64,000 nt of DNA from the NCBI GenBank assembly GCA_965226555.1, contig CBDDDG010000021.1, forward strand, positions 128,001 to 192,000, written 5' to 3'. The stretch's first letter is position 1, and each line of letters starts with the position of its first letter. The notes under the pieces were generated by a model, which searched no databases, was not told the origin of the DNA, and saw nothing but the letters and a program-made list of their open reading frames with translations. Positions 28,522-37,873 of the stretch are shown in pieces. The stretch comes from Salinispira sp. Lineage in GTDB: Bacteria > Spirochaetota > Spirochaetia > DSM-27196 > Salinispiraceae. The translations under genes and the position numbers were made by a program.

Positions 28522-28649
28522 TTTTATTGGGAAAAGAAATTTCAGAACATATCGGATTCATCAGGATAATAAAGCCTGAGGATATCTGCTGCGATGCTGT
28601 TCATTTTCACTTAGTTGAGCTCCATGTAAACGCCATTTATGCGCCGGCG

Positions 28650-28720
28650 TATAAATGGATTATAAATGGCGTATAAATGGCTTATAAATGGCTTATAAAT
28701 GGCTTATAAATGCGTATAAC
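28650..28720. repeat. 11-bp tandem repeat x6 (TATAAATGGCT)
   Basis: Units start at 28650, 28661, 28672, 28683, 28694, 28705; inverted partial copy GCCATTTAT at 28632-28640. Confidence 0.92.
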
Positions 28721-28738
28721 TTATGAGCGATATATAAG

Positions 28739-30406
28739 TTATGCGCTGAAGTTGTAAAAAGCAGTCTTCCGATCGCCATGTTTGTAAATTTTACCTTTAT
28801 TCGCGAGCTGCATCAGAAGTTTTGTGGACTGGTTTGGGGTTAAATGGCAGAGTTCGACTACATCGGATCGCCTGATCTTTTTGTGCTTCTGTATGAATCG
28901 CATTACCATCTGTTCCTGTTGAATTTTGTTGAATCCGATCTGGCGGATGTATTCGGCCTGTTGGCCTGTTTTCTGGTAAAGATGAGCGCTCAGGGTGTAG
29001 GTTCGTCCTCGGCCGGTGCCATGCGCTTCCAGAAAACCCGTTTCACACAGTTTTTCGAGCGTGGCTCGAACATTGGCTTCTGATTTTTGTACAGATTCAG
29101 TAAGGTCAGCCGTTGTTAAGCGTCTTTCTTCCCGTAATTTGGACAGAATAATGAGAGAATCAATGGGCATATTTTCAAATTTATCTTGTTCGATCAGCAT
29201 TTTAAGGAATTCAATATCTGCAACAGTATTGAGCATCTGAACAGAGACAGCAAATTCATCTGACATAGTATAATCTGGCGCCGGTCGACCATATCGCAAC
29301 ATGCCTTCATAAATCCGGTCAATACCTCTTCCTGTTCGTTCAGCCAGTCCAATTCGCTTTATTACATCGGCCAATAAGGGATTACGTGAACGAGGAGCCG
29401 CGACCAACAGATTATTGAAATTAACCCCCTCAACAAATCCGCCCGGATTACTAATTGTGAGTCCGTCATGAGAAATGGTAACATGAACAGCGCCTAATCT
29501 GCTGAAATCGCGATGAACGAGAGCATTAACAAAGGCCTCCCGAAATGCGCGGCGATCGTAATTGGGAACCGGAACACGAAATAACCCAATTTGAATTTCT
29601 TCCTCTTCCACGCGCGCCTTAAACAAAACTTCAATTTCCTCAAAAGTTTGCAGGAGCGGTTTTCGGAAAAACTCATTTACCCTGACATCTGTACCATTGA
29701 GAACCTGAAAGGCAGCTTCGTAGGCCGGAATATGCTGACGCAGGAGGTACTCTGTTCCCAACAACAGCAAACCGGTAATGGTCGGCCGTTTGCTGCCATT
29801 AACCTCCCGACATAAGCCCAATGCATCATCCAATTCTTCATCGGACAAAGGAAGGAGACTCGGTTCTCCGCCATATTTTTTAATGGCATTTCGCAGGCGC
29901 AGACGTTGAAGGGAATCCAACTGTCGGTGAGAAATATCTTCTAAAATCATTGCCGATGGATCAATCTGCCCCATTGATGACTGCCGCTGAATAAATTCGT
30001 GCGCGTAGAACGGGACAGCCTCAGGAGTACCGTTAAGTTTTACGCGGCGCCGAAGTAGGCGCCCATCTGAAGTTGAGATTAGTTGCCGTGATTTTGGGAC
30101 GTGAATGTGCGCAACTGATTTGCCGGAAATAGTGTATTTTTCCACATTGACTGAAACGGCAGGATTGGTTTTATTCGCAACAAGCGGGGGAATACCGGAA
30201 ATGTCTATATGATTCGGATGCAGTCCCGTAACTGTTCCATCATCTTCAACGCCAAGCAATAATTCACCCCCTTCAGTATTCGCAAGGGATACAACTGCCG
30301 CAAGCACATCTTTGTCCGACAGTGGCTTCTGATCACTTTTGAACTCCACAGTTAAGCTTTCTCCCTGCTGAATAATATCTGCTATTTCATCTCTGCTCAC
30401 GCCCAA
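28739..30406 (-). CDS. AlbA_2/Schlafen-domain + HATPase_c_4 + winged-HTH protein
   Basis: GESLTVEFK, LANTEGGELLLGVEDDG, REAFVNALVHRD, RNPLLAD, ERTGRGI and C-terminal wHTH-like segments. Confidence 0.88.
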   Translation of the reverse strand: MGVSRDEIADIIQQGESLTVEFKSDQKPLSDKDVLAAVVSLANTEGGELLLGVEDDGTVTGLHPNHIDISGIPPLVANKTNPAVSVNVEKYTISGKSVAHIHVPKSRQLISTSDGRLLRRRVKLNGTPEAVPFYAHEFIQRQSSMGQIDPSAMILEDISHRQLDSLQRLRLRNAIKKYGGEPSLLPLSDEELDDALGLCREVNGSKRPTITGLLLLGTEYLLRQHIPAYEAAFQVLNGTDVRVNEFFRKPLLQTFEEIEVLFKARVEEEEIQIGLFRVPVPNYDRRAFREAFVNALVHRDFSRLGAVHVTISHDGLTISNPGGFVEGVNFNNLLVAAPRSRNPLLADVIKRIGLAERTGRGIDRIYEGMLRYGRPAPDYTMSDEFAVSVQMLNTVADIEFLKMLIEQDKFENMPIDSLIILSKLREERRLTTADLTESVQKSEANVRATLEKLCETGFLEAHGTGRGRTYTLSAHLYQKTGQQAEYIRQIGFNKIQQEQMVMRFIQKHKKIRRSDVVELCHLTPNQSTKLLMQLANKGKIYKHGDRKTAFYNFSA

Positions 30407-30579
30407 TACACCTCGGATAATCCACTTCCGATTATACCGGAAATTTTGAAAAATGCAAAATTTCTATTTGCAAAACTTCTATAATGTAGTTTTCTGAAAC
30501 ATTGCTGCATGTTGAATGAGAATGAACAGATGATTGGCAAGGACTGGAGAATAGTGTATACTGCCACTATGGAGTGAAC

Positions 30580-31332
30580 ATGATTATTCATGAAATTGAA
30601 TGCCGTGCAATTGTATCTATGCAGGTTGCAGATATTCAACCAACAGCAGATATTTTTACCAAAATGATTTCACACTTTTCCGATCTAGACCTCATACCAT
30701 CAACGTATGAAGAAATGGATGGTAAAGGGAACATGACTACACGGTTGCAACTACGTTCATCGGATGTGGACTTGTGGACAATAAATTTTTCTTCCAATAT
30801 GGTCGATATAAAACGCCGAAACACAAACATACATACTATTCCGTTTAATAAAAAAACAAAATTCACAGAGGAAATTACATATATTCTGACAAAAATTCTT
30901 CAGATATTTCCCAGATTCCGCGATCAATCTTTCAGCAATAATCTTTTATTCATGAGTGAATATTTTTTGACAGAATTAGATCATGAAGAAAAGCAAAAAT
31001 CGACACGGGGTTTGTACACTCTCGGAAGCATATATTCTAATGAAATTTTACCCAACTGGGGGCAAAGCGCTATGATCCGGAAAAAAATAGATATTGGTGA
31101 AAAACAAGAGGAATGCAATGTACTTGCGCAGGCGCAACAAGCGCAGGGAAAGCTACTGATAGAATCAGAATATCAATCTTGGGAGGGTATTAAAATTAAT
31201 TATATTATGCGTACTCTTCTGGAGAATAGTGCTTATCGATTCGGAATTGATGAAATTTCTTTATTCTACCAATCAATTATTACAATGGAAGATCAGCTAA
31301 AAACCGACTTCATAAATGGATTAGGGAGGTAG
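30580..31332 (+). CDS. Hypothetical protein, possibly TIGR04255-like (gene A of a three-gene module)
   Basis: About 250 aa, GGAG RBS, beta-rich pattern RLQL...WTINFSSNMVDI; AT-rich codon usage. Confidence 0.6.
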   Translation: MIIHEIECRAIVSMQVADIQPTADIFTKMISHFSDLDLIPSTYEEMDGKGNMTTRLQLRSSDVDLWTINFSSNMVDIKRRNTNIHTIPFNKKTKFTEEITYILTKILQIFPRFRDQSFSNNLLFMSEYFLTELDHEEKQKSTRGLYTLGSIYSNEILPNWGQSAMIRKKIDIGEKQEECNVLAQAQQAQGKLLIESEYQSWEGIKINYIMRTLLENSAYRFGIDEISLFYQSIITMEDQLKTDFINGLGR

Positions 31333-31336
31333 TTAT

Positions 31337-31978
31337 ATGGAATACAAAGAACTTTCCCCGATATTTTATTCGATGAAACAATTAACCGAAATTACCAAGA
31401 GCTTTTCGGAGAGCATAAGTGAAATGCTTCATTCGAATGTTATAGAATCTCCCAACAGCACTTCTAACCTTGAAAAGTACGATGAAAACAAAATTAACAG
31501 GGAGAGACTGGAATTCCTTCGTAAACATACTACCCCGCGATTTATTAAGCTCATTCGGGAGGAGCATTTTGAATTTGGCTATACATCGCAAAGCGAAATT
31601 TTTCTCAGAGAATTATTGGAGAAGAATTCTTTGGCAACAATGAGCTGGCTGAACGAATTGTATAACGATAACTTTCACAATGATGTTATTCTGATAGGGA
31701 TAGTGAGGTTACTTGGAAGATTCGATGAAGCAAGTATAAAACCTCAGGGACAAACTATGGCATTAGGGTCACTTATTCATAAAAATTTGGAAATTTGCGA
31801 ATTAGGTATTAGAGCATTTGAAAGTTGGGGATCAACGGACAGTCTCCGTATTTTGAAACAGACTCGCGTTAGTGTTTTGAAACAGATTTCTATTGCAGAC
31901 AAGTGGCTCAAACAGTACCTTGAAGAAGTAATTAGCGATTTGGAAGAAGATCATGCCCTATCTAATACGAAAATATAG
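31337..31978 (+). CDS. Hypothetical helical (HEAT-like) protein (gene B)
   Basis: GGGAGG RBS; amphipathic helices EEHFEFGY, ELGIRAFESWG, WLKQYL. Confidence 0.65.
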   Translation: MEYKELSPIFYSMKQLTEITKSFSESISEMLHSNVIESPNSTSNLEKYDENKINRERLEFLRKHTTPRFIKLIREEHFEFGYTSQSEIFLRELLEKNSLATMSWLNELYNDNFHNDVILIGIVRLLGRFDEASIKPQGQTMALGSLIHKNLEICELGIRAFESWGSTDSLRILKQTRVSVLKQISIADKWLKQYLEEVISDLEEDHALSNTKI

Positions 31979-32483
31979 TCGGGCAAAATGGAGGGGAGTA
32001 GATTTTCATAAACCTCAGAATGCCCCCGCAGATGCAATTACAAACTGCCTTAAAACAACTGATAATACTTTGTCTGTTTGGGAAATTGATTCTCCCGACA
32101 AACCGGATGAAGGGGTGCTTGCGATTGCTGGATCATTAGACCACATTGCGGCAATTGATATTATTATTCTGAATGAAGATGACATTAAAGACGCAGATAT
32201 TTCTGTTGAATCTTCCGAGGGAGATACAACAGTCACCGATCTTAAAGAAACTCATAAGGATATAGTAAATCTTACATATTATACGCTTGGCAAAATAAAT
32301 GATCTTATGGTTACAAGTCTTAAAAATAAATTGTGTAAGCGTTACACCGCAGGGGAATTGAAAAAGATTCTCAAAAAGGCACTTAACGAAAAACGAATAC
32401 ATTGGGAGAATTTATCTCCAGGATTGCAGAAAATTTGTAAAAAACTGTTGGAGGGCGAAGAATATCATGCCCAGAGAACCTGA
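31953..32483 (+). CDS. Hypothetical protein with ADP-ribosyltransferase-like motif spacing (gene C)
   Basis: YLIRK, ADAITNCLKT..NTLSVW, GDT...H.DI; overlaps gene B and the mod gene. Confidence 0.6.
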   Translation: MPYLIRKYSRAKWRGVDFHKPQNAPADAITNCLKTTDNTLSVWEIDSPDKPDEGVLAIAGSLDHIAAIDIIILNEDDIKDADISVESSEGDTTVTDLKETHKDIVNLTYYTLGKINDLMVTSLKNKLCKRYTAGELKKILKKALNEKRIHWENLSPGLQKICKKLLEGEEYHAQRT

Positions 32484-35061
32484 GAAGAAACAGATTACAT
32501 CGTATGCTCATAAGGATGCGCTGCGGACGAACAATCCGCTGGTTGGGTTGGTGACGCCGGGCACCGATCCTGACGAGGGGAAAGCCACGAGCTATGCCTA
32601 CGATCCGCACATTGACCCGCACATGGAATGGGCAGGCAAGGCGGAGCGTATGTCCTTTGCGGTTCCGCTGCAATCGTTGCATGTGCATGAGCGCATTGAC
32701 CCCCGCAGCATTATTGAGGCGGTGTGCAGGCGCGGCGGTCGGCAGGGCAGGCAGATGGGCCTGTTTGAAGAAGAGCGCGAGGTTCCGCTGCGTCAGGCTA
32801 TTGAATTCTATCGGCATTCCCGGAACTGGAGCAACCGGCTCATTGCCGGCGATTCGCTGCTCATTATGAATTCCCTGCTGGGTAAGGAAAATATGGCAGC
32901 CAAGGTGCAGTGCGTGTACATGGATCCGCCCTACGGCATTACATACGGCTCCAATTTTCAGCCCTTTACGAACAAACGCGAGGTCATGGACGGCAAGAGT
33001 GAAGATTTAACCGCCGAGCCGGAAATGATTAAGGCATTCCGCGACACCTGGGAACTCGGCATTCATTCCTACCTCTCATACATGCGCGACCGGCTGCTGC
33101 TCATACGCGAGCTACTGACCGAAAGCGGAAGTGTGTTTGTGCAGATAGGCGCCGAGAATGTGCACAGGGTGAGTCTTATAATGGATGAGATATTCGGCGC
33201 GGAGAACAGAGTGGCAACAATTACCTTCATGACATCGGGCGCCAGCTCATCGAACACCTTGCCGTCAGTTGCCGACTATCTCCTCTGGTATGCCAAAGAC
33301 CGGAAAAACATGAAATATCGGCAATTGCACGACCCGCTGAATCGCTCCGAAACGGTGGAGTTTTTTACTTCATACGCTGCTGTTGAACTGCCGGATGGTA
33401 CCTGCCGAAAACTTACAACTGATGAACGTTCCGACCCCAATACATTGCCTCATGGCGCGCGGCTGTACCAACGCATGCCATTGACATCTCAAGGGTTATC
33501 AAGTACTGGGCGATCTGATCCTTATGAATGGAACGAGAAGATATTTCCCTGCGCTCCTCGGCACTGGAGTGTTTCAATGGATGGTCTGGATCGTCTGGCT
33601 GAAATCAACAGGTTAGATGCTGCGGAATCTGATGGCGCCACATTAGGATGGAAGCGATACGAGAATGAAACACCCGGGCGCAAAATTAACAATGTATGGG
33701 CGAGGCAAATGTCAGTTGCCGGCAGCGCGAAGCGCTATGTTGTGCAAACTGCCGACAGCGTGTTGGAACGCTGCCTGCTCATGGCCAGCGATCCGGGCGA
33801 CTTGGTATTCGACCCGACCTGCGGAAGCGGTGTTACCGCCTATACCGCCGAAAAATGGGGCAGACGCTGGATAACCTGCGATACCTCCCGTGTTGCTACC
33901 GCCATTGCCCGGCAGCGGCTCATGACTGCGCTATTCCCGTATTACAAACTAGCATATCCGCAAGATGGAGTGGGCGGCGGCTTTGAATACAAGAAAGTGC
34001 CCTATGTTTCGGCAAAAACTCTGGCATACAACGAAGTGCAAACCTTCACAACCCTGTATAACCAGCCGCTGAAAGATTCTGCGCGCAGCCGCGTAACCGG
34101 ACCCTTCACCGTTGAGGCCGTACCATCCCCGACCGTGCAGCCAATTCATGAGCTTAGCCCCCCGCCGGAACCTCTTCCCGAAAATGAGTCCATTGTTCGC
34201 GCTGGCGAGACCCTGCGTCAGAACGAATGGATCGATGAATTACTGGAAAACGGCATCCGCGGAAAAAATAATCAGCATATCTCCTTCTCGCGCATTACCC
34301 CCCTGCCCAACCGCTGGCTGCATGCCATTGCCGAGACATCTCCAGACAATTCCGCCCGCGCTAGCGCCGCCGCCAGCCGTCCCAAATCAGCGCCCGAATC
34401 CGCCGCCGAATTGCTCCGCGCTGCCTTCAGCTTCGGCCCTGAGCATGCCCCGCTCGAGCCGCGTCAGGTAGAAAATGCCCTGCAGGAAGCGGGAAAACTT
34501 GTCCCCAGCCCGAAAATAGTTATTTTCGCCGCCTTTCAGTTCGACCCCGAAGCATCAAAAGATATTGCCGAAACAAACTGGCCCGGCGTTACCCTGCTCA
34601 CCGTGGGAATGAATGCCGATCTGCAAACTGACGATCTGAAAAAGAAACAAACCGGCAGCGACAGCTTCTGGCTTATCGGGCAGCCGGATATTCAGGTCGA
34701 GCAGATACGCGCGGGGGATCATGTCGGAAGATGGTTTGTAAAAGTAGAGGGATTTGACTATTTCAACACGAGAACCAGTGAACTGACAAGCGGCAATGCG
34801 GAAAACATCGCCATCTGGATGCTCGATACCGATTATGACGGGCGAAGTGTCTACCCCCGGCAGGTATTCTTCCCCATGGCGGGAAAAAACGATGGCTGGC
34901 AGAAGCTGGCAAAGAATCTGCGGGCAGAAATAGACACCGGCCTCATGGAAGCATACCGGGGAACGACATCCCTGCCCTTTGAGTCCGGCAAGAACAAACG
35001 AATTGCGGTTAAAATTGTGGATGATCGCGGCATTGAAAGCCTGCGGGTCATGAACCTTTAA
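32467..35061 (+). CDS. Type III R-M-like adenine DNA methyltransferase (Mod)
   Basis: NRLIAGDSL, YMDPPYGI, FRDTWELGIHSYL, FDPTCGSG and C-terminal IAVKIVDDRG. Confidence 0.92.
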   Translation: MPREPEKKQITSYAHKDALRTNNPLVGLVTPGTDPDEGKATSYAYDPHIDPHMEWAGKAERMSFAVPLQSLHVHERIDPRSIIEAVCRRGGRQGRQMGLFEEEREVPLRQAIEFYRHSRNWSNRLIAGDSLLIMNSLLGKENMAAKVQCVYMDPPYGITYGSNFQPFTNKREVMDGKSEDLTAEPEMIKAFRDTWELGIHSYLSYMRDRLLLIRELLTESGSVFVQIGAENVHRVSLIMDEIFGAENRVATITFMTSGASSSNTLPSVADYLLWYAKDRKNMKYRQLHDPLNRSETVEFFTSYAAVELPDGTCRKLTTDERSDPNTLPHGARLYQRMPLTSQGLSSTGRSDPYEWNEKIFPCAPRHWSVSMDGLDRLAEINRLDAAESDGATLGWKRYENETPGRKINNVWARQMSVAGSAKRYVVQTADSVLERCLLMASDPGDLVFDPTCGSGVTAYTAEKWGRRWITCDTSRVATAIARQRLMTALFPYYKLAYPQDGVGGGFEYKKVPYVSAKTLAYNEVQTFTTLYNQPLKDSARSRVTGPFTVEAVPSPTVQPIHELSPPPEPLPENESIVRAGETLRQNEWIDELLENGIRGKNNQHISFSRITPLPNRWLHAIAETSPDNSARASAAASRPKSAPESAAELLRAAFSFGPEHAPLEPRQVENALQEAGKLVPSPKIVIFAAFQFDPEASKDIAETNWPGVTLLTVGMNADLQTDDLKKKQTGSDSFWLIGQPDIQVEQIRAGDHVGRWFVKVEGFDYFNTRTSELTSGNAENIAIWMLDTDYDGRSVYPRQVFFPMAGKNDGWQKLAKNLRAEIDTGLMEAYRGTTSLPFESGKNKRIAVKIVDDRGIESLRVMNL

Positions 35062-35119
35062 TGCGTGAGATTATTGTGAGGTAATGCAAAATGATTCGGA
35101 AACTTAAGCTGTCAAATTA

Positions 35120-37873
35120 ATGAATCAACGCTCTTTAATTATCAATTCACCGTACAAAATGCCTTCCCGCCATTGGAAATTTGCCGGACAGGGCACTTCT
35201 CCCGATCTTGTGGAGGGGCGGCATGAGGCCGGGTACATGGTTTCAGATACGGGAGCAAAGCCTCATCAGGATAGTGGAACCTTCATTCCTTTGCCGCTGG
35301 TGAATCAGATTCGCATGGCTGTGAATGCTTGGCGGAATGCGGGGTATCCGGGGATTACCGGAATTACGCAGGTCCTTCTGGAACATTGGAACGACAGCGA
35401 ACAGAGGGAATATCCATTGTTCTTCTGTCAGCTTGAAGCCATTGAGACACTAATATGGCTTATTGAGCTGTCCAATTCGAAGAAGCGGGGAATTACTATT
35501 CCTTCAGATGGCGGGGAGTTCAGTCGCTTTTGTTCCAAACTCGCTACGGGCACCGGTAAGACCGTTGTCATGGCAATGGTCATTGCATGGCAGGCAATTA
35601 ACCGTGTGACCTATCCGCGCGATGAACGATTCTCGCAGAACATTTTTATTGTTGCGCCGAACCTGACGGTCAGAGAGCGGCTTTCTGTTTTAGAACCCTC
35701 ATGCAATGGGAATTATTACGATGAATTTAATGTTGCGCCGATCTCGTTGCGAGAGAAACTTTTACAGGCCCGGGTGCTCATAAAAAACTGGCATGTATTG
35801 AATTGGGAAACTGAGGAGAAAATTCGGAGCAAGAAGGGTGTGGATAAGCGCGGAGCCCTGAGCGACACGGCATACACGCGGGCAGTTCTGGGAGATATGG
35901 CGCATGCCCGCAACATCCTTGTCATTAACGATGAAGCGCACCATGCTTGGCGCGTCCATCCTGAGTCAAACATACGCGGCGTGAAGAAAGACGAAATAGA
36001 CGAGGCAACCAAATGGTTGGGCGGGCTTGATAGAATTAACAACACGCGGGGAATTCTCTGCTGTTTCGATTTTTCCGCAACGCCCTTTGCGCCGAGCGGG
36101 AAAACGGCGCCCGAATTATTCCCGTGGATAGTCAGCGATTTCGGCCTGAACGATGCCATTGAGGCAGGGCTGGTGAAAACGCCCCGCATTGTGGTGCGTG
36201 AAGACGCCATTCCCGCCGGAAATTATAAACCTCGTTTGTATCATATTTTCAGCGATCCGGAAGTGAAGGACAATTTGAATAGGAGCGCTGGAGAAGATGA
36301 CCCCCTGCCCGATTTTGTCCATAACGCCTACCGTCTTCTGGCATGCGACTGGGAGAAAACAAAGGAAGCATGGAGCGGGCGCGGAACGCCGCCGGTTATG
36401 ATTACGGTGGCAAACCGCACCGAAACGGCGGCGCGCATTACACGCGCATTTGAGAAAAAATTCATTGATCCACCATCCCTCTGCGATCCCAAAGGACTCT
36501 TGCATATTGACTCAAAGGTTCTGAAGGAGGCGGAGGAGCAGGAGCCCGAAGAAGGGACGCGGAAGAGCGCTCACAATGGAGAGGGCAGGAAACAAACACG
36601 GAAGGAAAGGGCAGACTTTCTCCGGGAGCAGGTCAATACGGTCGGGCAGGAAGGAACCCCGGGGGAACAGATACAAAATGTCATATCTGTGGGAATGCTG
36701 TCCGAGGGTTGGGACGCCCGAACGGTAACGCACATTATGGGGCTGCGGGCCTTTACCAGTCAGTTGCTCTGCGAGCAGGTTGTCGGGCGGGGTCTGCGGC
36801 GCGCTTCGTATGAAATTAATGAAGAGACCGGGTTATTTGATCCGGAATATGTCAATGTATTCGGCGTGCCCTTCAGTTTTTTGTCTATGGATAATGACGA
36901 TAGCGCGCCGCCGCGCCCTCCTGCGCAGAAAATTGAGGTTAAACCGGTGGATGAGAAGAAACGGTTTGAGATCCAATTTCCGAACATTGTCCGCGTGGAA
37001 CGAAAATGTCAACAAAAACTCTCAGTGAATTGGGCAGCGCTGAGTCCTCTGAAAATTGATGCATCCACAATTGTAGAAATTGCCGAAATTGCTCCCACGG
37101 TGAATAATTTGCCGGATCTGAACAATATTGAGACTCTGAATCTGGAAAAATTACTTGGCGCAAAGCGCAGGCAGACCCTTATTTTTCAGGCGGCGGAGAG
37201 CGCATGGAACCGCATGAAGTCCACATGGAAGGGGTCTGAGGATCGCTTAGTCGCGGAGTTAATAGGGCTGGCGGAGGAGTTTATGAGTTCAGGGAACATT
37301 CACATTACTCCCAATTCCTGCAACACCGGGAAAAGAAGGCATATTGTGCTCATGCTGAGTATGTCAAAAATCTTTTACCATTTTATCGATTCCATAACAT
37401 TCAGCAATTCCGAAGAACTCATTCCGGTGTTCAATAAGGACAGACCAATTCAATGGACGGGCGATATGCTTCCGTGGAGAACAGGCAGACCCTGTGAATA
37501 CACGAAGAAGAGCCATAGTAATTATTGTGTCTACGATAGCACTTGGGAGTCATCGGACGCGTTTGAACTGGATCGGAATGATCATGTCGATGCATGGGCG
37601 AAAAATGATCATGTGGGCTTTGAGGTTCTCTATGTTCACAATGGGGTAGTGCGGAAATATCGCCCCGATTTTCTCATTCGTCTGCGGTCGGGCGCTATGC
37701 TTGTGCTGGAGACGAAGGGAAGGCAGACGGATATGGATGATTCAAAGCATTCTTCCATGAGGGAATGGATTGCTGCCGTGAATGGCGATGGAAGGTTTGG
37801 ACAGTGGCAGTTTGATGTTTCGGCTCATCCGAAGGAAATAAAAAATATTCTCGCGCGGAGCGGTCAGGAATGA
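35120..37873 (+). CDS. Type III R-M-like restriction subunit (SF2 helicase + PD-(D/E)XK nuclease)
   Basis: LATGTGKT, DEAHH, SATP, LSEGWDA, EQVVGRGLRR and YRPDF...LETKG. Confidence 0.92.
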   Translation: MNQRSLIINSPYKMPSRHWKFAGQGTSPDLVEGRHEAGYMVSDTGAKPHQDSGTFIPLPLVNQIRMAVNAWRNAGYPGITGITQVLLEHWNDSEQREYPLFFCQLEAIETLIWLIELSNSKKRGITIPSDGGEFSRFCSKLATGTGKTVVMAMVIAWQAINRVTYPRDERFSQNIFIVAPNLTVRERLSVLEPSCNGNYYDEFNVAPISLREKLLQARVLIKNWHVLNWETEEKIRSKKGVDKRGALSDTAYTRAVLGDMAHARNILVINDEAHHAWRVHPESNIRGVKKDEIDEATKWLGGLDRINNTRGILCCFDFSATPFAPSGKTAPELFPWIVSDFGLNDAIEAGLVKTPRIVVREDAIPAGNYKPRLYHIFSDPEVKDNLNRSAGEDDPLPDFVHNAYRLLACDWEKTKEAWSGRGTPPVMITVANRTETAARITRAFEKKFIDPPSLCDPKGLLHIDSKVLKEAEEQEPEEGTRKSAHNGEGRKQTRKERADFLREQVNTVGQEGTPGEQIQNVISVGMLSEGWDARTVTHIMGLRAFTSQLLCEQVVGRGLRRASYEINEETGLFDPEYVNVFGVPFSFLSMDNDDSAPPRPPAQKIEVKPVDEKKRFEIQFPNIVRVERKCQQKLSVNWAALSPLKIDASTIVEIAEIAPTVNNLPDLNNIETLNLEKLLGAKRRQTLIFQAAESAWNRMKSTWKGSEDRLVAELIGLAEEFMSSGNIHITPNSCNTGKRRHIVLMLSMSKIFYHFIDSITFSNSEELIPVFNKDRPIQWTGDMLPWRTGRPCEYTKKSHSNYCVYDSTWESSDAFELDRNDHVDAWAKNDHVGFEVLYVHNGVVRKYRPDFLIRLRSGAMLVLETKGRQTDMDDSKHSSMREWIAAVNGDGRFGQWQFDVSAHPKEIKNILARSGQE

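Follow-up and report, generated by a model that had tools for sequence, protein, structure and literature searches.

The closest described counterparts of the locus studied here are the toxin-antitoxin-chaperone (TAC) modules, CmdTAC foremost. In the available portions of two reports (PMC11618068; 10.1101/2024.02.24.581848), these consist of three coupled genes, include a toxin of the ADP-ribosyltransferase (ART) fold, and are located in prophages. Their middle gene has a long unstructured tail facing the third component, one family of third components (SecB-like in TAC) is used with different toxins, and, according to the accessible part of the second report, removal of the tail frees the TAC antitoxin from its chaperone (10.1101/2024.02.24.581848). 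The same outline recurs in three genes, A, B and C, at positions 30580 to 32483 of a 64,000-nucleotide stretch of Salinispira sp. contig CBDDDG010000021.1 (hereafter the window): the three are coupled, with prophage copies elsewhere, B carries a tail, C has a predicted ART fold, and A-type proteins are the family shared among different toxins. Here we report that A-B-C is a conserved mobile cassette, and we consider what it may do.

Conservation and genomic placement of the trio

Genes A (30580..31332, 250 amino acids, ATG start), B (31337..31978, 213 amino acids) and C (31953..32483, 176 amino acids) lie on the forward strand, with a 4-bp gap between A and B, a 26-bp overlap between B and C, and a 17-bp overlap between C and the downstream gene mod. 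These coordinates agree with a preliminary description of the locus, which also rightly called the trio AT-rich: guanine-cytosine (GC) content is 35.2% in A, 36.8% in B and 37.5% in C, against 47.2% for the genome. The source contigs of the window agree base for base, and the three frames are all open and coupled.

We trained profiles of A and B on loci from genomes and viruses and tested them on 39 non-redundant loci from metagenomes, each with 1.7 kb or more of upstream DNA; all were retrieved by short motifs of the nearer subfamily, and a few of the contigs duplicate training loci. B adjoined C in 36 of the 39, and A and B together lay upstream of C in 31, so that the expectation of an A-B-C order kept elsewhere was borne out. 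By eye, the first gene in five of the eight exceptions (L147, L150, L151, L153 and L155) is divergent and encodes about 250 amino acids; L145 and L154 lack a first gene, and in L108 A is missing and only half of B is present. Spacing is also conserved, the A-B gap ranging from -14 to +11 nucleotides in 64 of 65 loci and B and C overlapping or lying less than 10 nucleotides apart in 63 of 65, and the pairwise identities of A, B and C correlate with one another (0.74–0.82).

The C family comprises 2,614 clusters at 50% identity, and in named genomes it is found in Bacteroidota, Pseudomonadota, Planctomycetota, Bacillota and others. C was present in none of 60 related genomes, and the trio is therefore a sporadic acquisition. 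Neither A, B and C (in Pfam, NCBIfam and PADLOC v2) nor 21 homologous proteins (in PADLOC and NCBIfam) gave a real match; all three proteins match PHROG families of unassigned function, A weakly and B in PHROGs 21208 and 14576.

Examination of the homologous loci revealed cargo positions typical of defence genes, in keeping with the anti-phage role proposed in the preliminary description. In Escherichia coli, where a DNA search matched 6 of 5,426 genomes and two were inspected, P2-like prophages carry the trio between their replication and portal genes, where it takes up the whole interval, and one further locus (L006) has it in the same P2-type slot. This slot is a validated defence hotspot (PMC9122126, available part); in Table S5A of that paper the trio occupies at least 10–11 rows as hypothetical proteins, and the eight P2 systems cloned in that work, in the same available part, do not include it. 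Elsewhere the trio follows the lysis genes of Acinetobacter temperate phages, stands beside an integrase-like gene (L005, L007 and L008), and is the main cargo of three small plasmids of 4.4–7.5 kb. The case for defence follows from this placement, in the P2 hotspot, in prophage cargo slots and on small plasmids. In the accessible tables of the DefensePredictor study (PMC13092281), a member of the E. coli C cluster is a putative novel defence gene with a log-odds score of 4.6, listed with the uncharacterised clusters and outside the tables of tested units. We regard a defence role for the trio as very probable. The earlier statement that it matches no named system still holds for PADLOC and for the literature: no published name was found, including in the available parts of PMC13586616, PMC10865869, PMC11980606 and PMC13069673, a search that could miss recent or subscription-only naming.

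The predicted toxin and its partner

The motifs previously pointed out in C (YLIRK, NTLSVW and GDT..H-x-D) were confirmed and are conserved across 150 sequences, with R6 in 144, S41 in 150, W43 in 149, G90 in 136, H101 in 149 and D103 in 122; position 103 is otherwise Asn in 22 and Glu in 5. Structure prediction gave an ART-superfamily core, as had been proposed, in which R6, S41 and H101 (with D/N103) would lie on three core strands, followed by a helical addition at the C-terminus. The Arg and Ser are kept, the terminal Glu of an R-S-E or H-Y-E motif is missing, and the fifth strand has H101 and D103. C showed no sequence match to chains in the PDB or to Pfam ART families, and Foldseek searches of the PDB with C and with A returned nothing at E ≤ 0.001. 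On the predicted fold, C would be an NAD-using ADP-ribosyltransferase-type toxin, and thus the putative effector of the trio.

B, the proposed antitoxin, had been described as a low-complexity N-terminus on a helical body, and the family alignment bears this out. In the window copy a Ser-rich variable tail of about 49 residues precedes a helical HEAT-like domain of about 150 residues. Across the family the tail varies from 10 to 185 residues at 11% mean identity, with 14% Ser, 16% Asp plus Glu and 9% Phe plus Tyr, and the domain (144–187 residues, about 152) has 34% mean identity, carries an acidic F-[ED]-x-G motif, and matches HEAT_2 weakly in 2 of 48 members. In three loci that have B-C and no adjoining first gene, only 28, 50 and 55 residues precede the motif glycine, compared to a family median of 104; tails this short occur in 2 of 66 B proteins, a cut-off chosen afterwards on a tiny sample. 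Since tail removal frees the TAC antitoxin from its chaperone, the short tails of A-less loci fit addiction through the tail. Near 31850–31890, a short tandem duplication in the window copy of B adds eight residues to the last helices and is found in no homologue.

The first gene and the TIGR04255 family

A is predicted to form a TBP-like saddle of two alpha/beta repeats and is the proposed regulator or sensor. Structure comparison placed TBP, Rep initiators and viral early transcription factors among its nearest folds, and the conserved residues Q9, R74, R121, N180, D209 and N211 would share one face, judging from strand alternation. The top fold match was an McsB-like ATP:guanido phosphotransferase, an identity that we rejected because hhalign comparison with up to 25 McsB homologues gave a probability of 0.2 (E 0.36). 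A had no Pfam SecB match at E ≤ 1, SecB was absent among the 50 fold matches listed for it, its profile found nothing significant among PDB sequences, and a single-sequence search with A retrieved A alone.

The suggestion that A is TIGR04255-like stood in part. The window protein itself does not match the TIGR04255 model (cut-off 30 bits), which 4 of 40 first-position proteins match, whereas the A profile aligned to TIGR04255 over 182 columns with a probability of 77 (E 2e-5), compared to 0.2–1.2 for control profiles of B, C and McsB. By this profile evidence A appears to be a remote TIGR04255 relative in a separate subfamily marked by a D-I-N-T motif, which is altered in the window copy. Complex prediction for A and B, using the L040 pair with 65-row paired alignments and run without folded controls, scored 0.11 against a mark of 0.32, which speaks neither for nor against a contact.

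True TIGR04255 members precede this B-C pair in L064, L071, L072 and L216. A survey of 401 genomes from the phylum of the window, and of one genome more, covered 33 TIGR04255 loci; a coupled second gene was found in 28, a toxin-like gene in the next positions in 27, and this B-C pair in one. By Pfam, the third genes include DUF7689 in three loci and PIN in two; on motif alone, we take four others to be HicA-like, nine to be small R..S..H ART-like genes, and eight to belong to a QGD..SQxCD family. Second-gene clusters follow third-gene clusters, and the tails of these other second genes are modestly distinct (Ser/Thr/Asn/Gln 29% vs 22%), with a small difference in conservation. The likeness of C to the small ART-like third genes is one of motif alone, because comparison of the C profile with five of them gave a probability of 0.1. 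TIGR04255 genes thus head trios with varied toxin-like third genes, and the layout therefore mirrors that of TAC with the order reversed and the tail first.

Several individual trios were also recorded. The window's own genome has a full TIGR04255 trio (L213, contig C2, 27528–31262) ending in a 134-residue gene that is ART-like by motif, and a true TIGR04255 gene with a second gene and an unclear third (L209, contig C25, 1674–5405). On a Picosynechococcus plasmid (L217, 2992–4742), a trio with a first gene of the L073 type and a small ART-like third gene lies between hsdR and hsdS of a type I restriction-modification (R-M) system. The QGD/SQxCD-like proteins (185–260 residues) end the trios L187, L189, L192, L193, L196, L197, L204 and L208; the seven members scanned (all but L204) had no Pfam match, and we consider them a candidate undescribed toxin family.

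We tentatively suggest, as a possibility well short of even, that TIGR04255-like proteins may constitute a second, non-SecB class of sensor-chaperone, a TBP-like saddle that would hold the N-terminal addiction tails of unrelated antitoxins. Swappable warheads (R-S-H ART, smaller ART-like, HicA-like, PIN, DUF7689 and MBL nuclease) would then come under phage-triggered control in a widespread mirror image of TAC, of which A-B-C would be one large branch.

Proposed mechanism and alternative explanations

For the trio we infer a course of events in which C would act as the ART-type toxin, B would hold it inactive through the HEAT-like domain, and the saddle of A would bind the variable N-terminal tail of B; a phage product would displace A, B would be lost, and C would arrest the infected cell. 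It is likely that C is a toxin with B as its antitoxin, and it is conceivable, at a little under an even chance, that A acts through the tail of B. The toxin-antitoxin-regulator mechanism as a whole is the reading that we favour, at about even odds, and the conceptual likeness to TAC drawn in the preliminary description is plausible. No RNA holder was among the matches listed.

Two results weigh against this mechanism. The window copy of A retains only 2 of 8 conserved open-face residues and ranks second of 66 in relative divergence. The neighbour scan, which covered 136 of 198 selected open reading frames from 44 of 65 loci, gave 28 PADLOC matches in 136, against 20 in 100 arbitrary genes of the window's genome, so that the defence-island enrichment anticipated for trio neighbourhoods was not shown; R-M matches were 15 in 136 against 6 in 100 (p 0.25). 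The control was a single, unmatched, defence-rich genome, sampled as ten arbitrary 16-kb stretches (L226–L235). Such a wealth of defence-like genes, with 20 of the 100 arbitrary genes matching PADLOC (methyltransferases, AAA ATPases and DUF262-like proteins), is unusual.

A might instead be a stand-alone sensor: phage nucleic acid or a phage protein would bind to its concave face, and A would then activate C by way of B as an adaptor, the tail being only a linker or degron and loss of A silencing the system. The nearest folds of A and the single face of its conserved residues would suit such a sensor, and so would the tolerance of a remodelled A next to an intact C in the window. However, in the three loci without A, C stays intact only where the tail of B is short. 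In addition, a single family of first genes is paired with unrelated effectors, and every effector comes with a second gene of its own, as would suit a first protein that generically holds the second; we consider the sensor unlikely. It is also conceivable that the trio has no anti-phage activity and serves the plasmids, prophages and islands that carry it for addiction or maintenance. Its position as nearly the sole cargo of small ColE1-type plasmids and the flat neighbour control are consistent with maintenance. Against it stand the P2 hotspot, where the systems tested proved defensive (PMC9122126, available part), the DefensePredictor score of the E. coli C cluster, and the validation as defensive of DS-42, a unit of the same layout likened to the trio by outline alone (both PMC13092281, available part), and on balance we find pure maintenance improbable.

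The divergence of the window's A bears on a further alternative, in which the toxin-antitoxin-regulator mechanism applies to the family, and the window copy is decaying or newly re-specified, A having been fused, at 30598, to a start codon already in place and having lost its ligand face. In a related strain, the same upstream region and the first 19 nucleotides of A (30580..30598) are followed by different DNA: contigs from two runs (X4 and X5) of one other study carry the upstream AlbA gene and 30542–30598 at 95–99% identity and share an identical loose end at 30598, although the depth of the junction contig is low (3.6–4.8). Because these contigs carry other DNA from 30598, the slot behind the putative promoter exchanges cargo, and at the start codon of A one type of first gene may have replaced another. 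This junction within the first seven codons of A and the loss of face residues would both be expected of a decaying or re-specified copy. Yet none of the three coupled frames is interrupted, the source contigs do not differ, the fold is retained, and N121/R211 is a possible reciprocal swap; such a fate for the window copy is possible and not the more probable outcome. Beyond 30598, the alternative cargo has no stop in the frame of A along the 30 letters compared, and by eye it resembles the N-terminal motif of TIGR04255.

The preliminary description joined A-B-C to the mod and res genes as an apparent five-gene unit, with the trio possibly guarding the R-M system; on this reading it would protect the R-M enzymes against phage inhibitors. 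Downstream of C, mod (32467–35061) encodes a methyltransferase and res (35120–37873) a helicase-nuclease, both on the forward strand; this BPTD_3080 family pair (32467..37873) has the layout of type III R-M (PADLOC MTase_III, E 2e-149; NF046055, 1018.8 bits, cut-off 800). C and mod overlap by 17 bp and are probably co-transcribed here, and R-M genes of some type lie within two genes of the trio in 9 of 44 other loci. However, a type III pair adjoins the trio in only one of the 44 (L074), upstream rather than downstream, with a type II/III-like methyltransferase in L080, and most homologues have no R-M neighbour, the plasmid and prophage copies standing alone. In 300 genomes of the phylum, five other mod loci had upstream DNA, and none of the three genes occurred within roughly 1.5 kb of any of them (a sixth is cut by a contig end). 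Given these counts and the contrast in GC content (35–38% in the trio; 54.5% in mod and 50.3% in res), the R-M genes are not a conserved part of the cassette, and the five-gene unit was not upheld; we judge an R-M guard highly improbable.

The toxin-antitoxin-regulator mechanism would offer a testable function for a large unannotated toxin-like family on mobile elements of E. coli, Acinetobacter and Klebsiella that could shape phage host range, and a possible mechanism for the uncharacterised TIGR04255 family and perhaps DS-42. Should A prove to be a modular sensor of phage acting on antitoxins via an N-terminal tail, chaperone-gated immunity would have arisen twice, on different folds, an idea that the E. 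coli P2 copy allows to be tested directly.

Neighbouring genes and local sequence features

Divergent from the trio, on the reverse strand (28739..30406), lies the Schlafen/AlbA_2 gene noted earlier, in which Pfam recognises AlbA_2, HATPase_c_4 and wHTH domains. It has blastp homologues in two loci (L071 and L086) and is retained in the strain with other cargo; it is a resident of the island and not a conserved part of the cassette. The best sigma-70-like promoter match upstream of A (30534..30562, forward strand) and a divergent match for the AlbA gene (30459–30431, reverse strand) each have 10 of 12 matching positions, and as a set such sites are not above chance (10 found vs 7.9 +/- 2.4 in shuffles).

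The starts of C and of mod, with their ribosome-binding sites, lie in the two copies of a 16-nucleotide direct repeat (15 of 16 identical) at 31943–31958 and 32457–32472. If the copies recombined, this would remove C and couple mod to B, and the similar start context partly explains the repeat; no such joint was seen in the contigs compared with the locus. An 11-nucleotide unit is repeated in tandem about seven times immediately 3' of the AlbA gene (28622–28722, with an inverted copy at 28622–28645); these repeats are matched by a high-depth 41-nucleotide contig of run X5, and are possibly an island boundary or a protein-binding array. No long repeats flanking the island were found.

Comparison with known systems

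Of the defence units described to date, DS-42 (PRO1) has a similar outline: in the available parts of PMC13092281 (Tables S6 and S8) it is a validated E. coli three-gene unit with a 238-residue first protein, a 190-residue second with a Ser/Thr/Asn-rich start, and an effector third. Its third protein is a 363-residue MBL-fold hydrolase, in contrast to the 176-residue ART-fold C, and its second shows no B motif by eye in that part of the source. The first gene of DS-42 resembles by eye that of L073, whose small profile found no match in A (probability 0.7); tblastn with the L073 first gene found no DS-42-like locus. Rst_3HP also consists of three unannotated genes in the P2 gpA-gpQ hotspot (PMC9122126, available part), and was rejected as an identity for the trio by eye; its proteins, in the accessible Table S2A, are larger and show no A, B or C motifs on such a comparison, and it is probably a different system in the same slot. 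DS-21, in the available part of its source, was rejected by size and sequence.

From the small R-S-type ART-fold toxins (Tse2, the RES toxins VPA0770, MbcT and ParT, DarT, AvrPphF/HopF and Tpt1), C is set apart by its extra predicted C-terminal helices and by its partner, a HEAT-like protein rather than Xre, DarG or Tsi2. CmdT has an H-Y-E-type triad (diphtheria-type H-Y-[EDQ]; PMC11618068), whereas C has R6, S41, H101 and D/N103. TAC runs from toxin to antitoxin to chaperone with a C-terminal tail, in the available part of its description, whereas the order here is regulator, antitoxin, toxin with the tail at the N-terminus of B; A is a 250-residue two-repeat protein that does not match SecB by sequence, and B has a HEAT-like domain. 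The trio is thus TAC-like in the steps that we propose for it, yet lies outside TAC by chaperone family, gene order and tail position.
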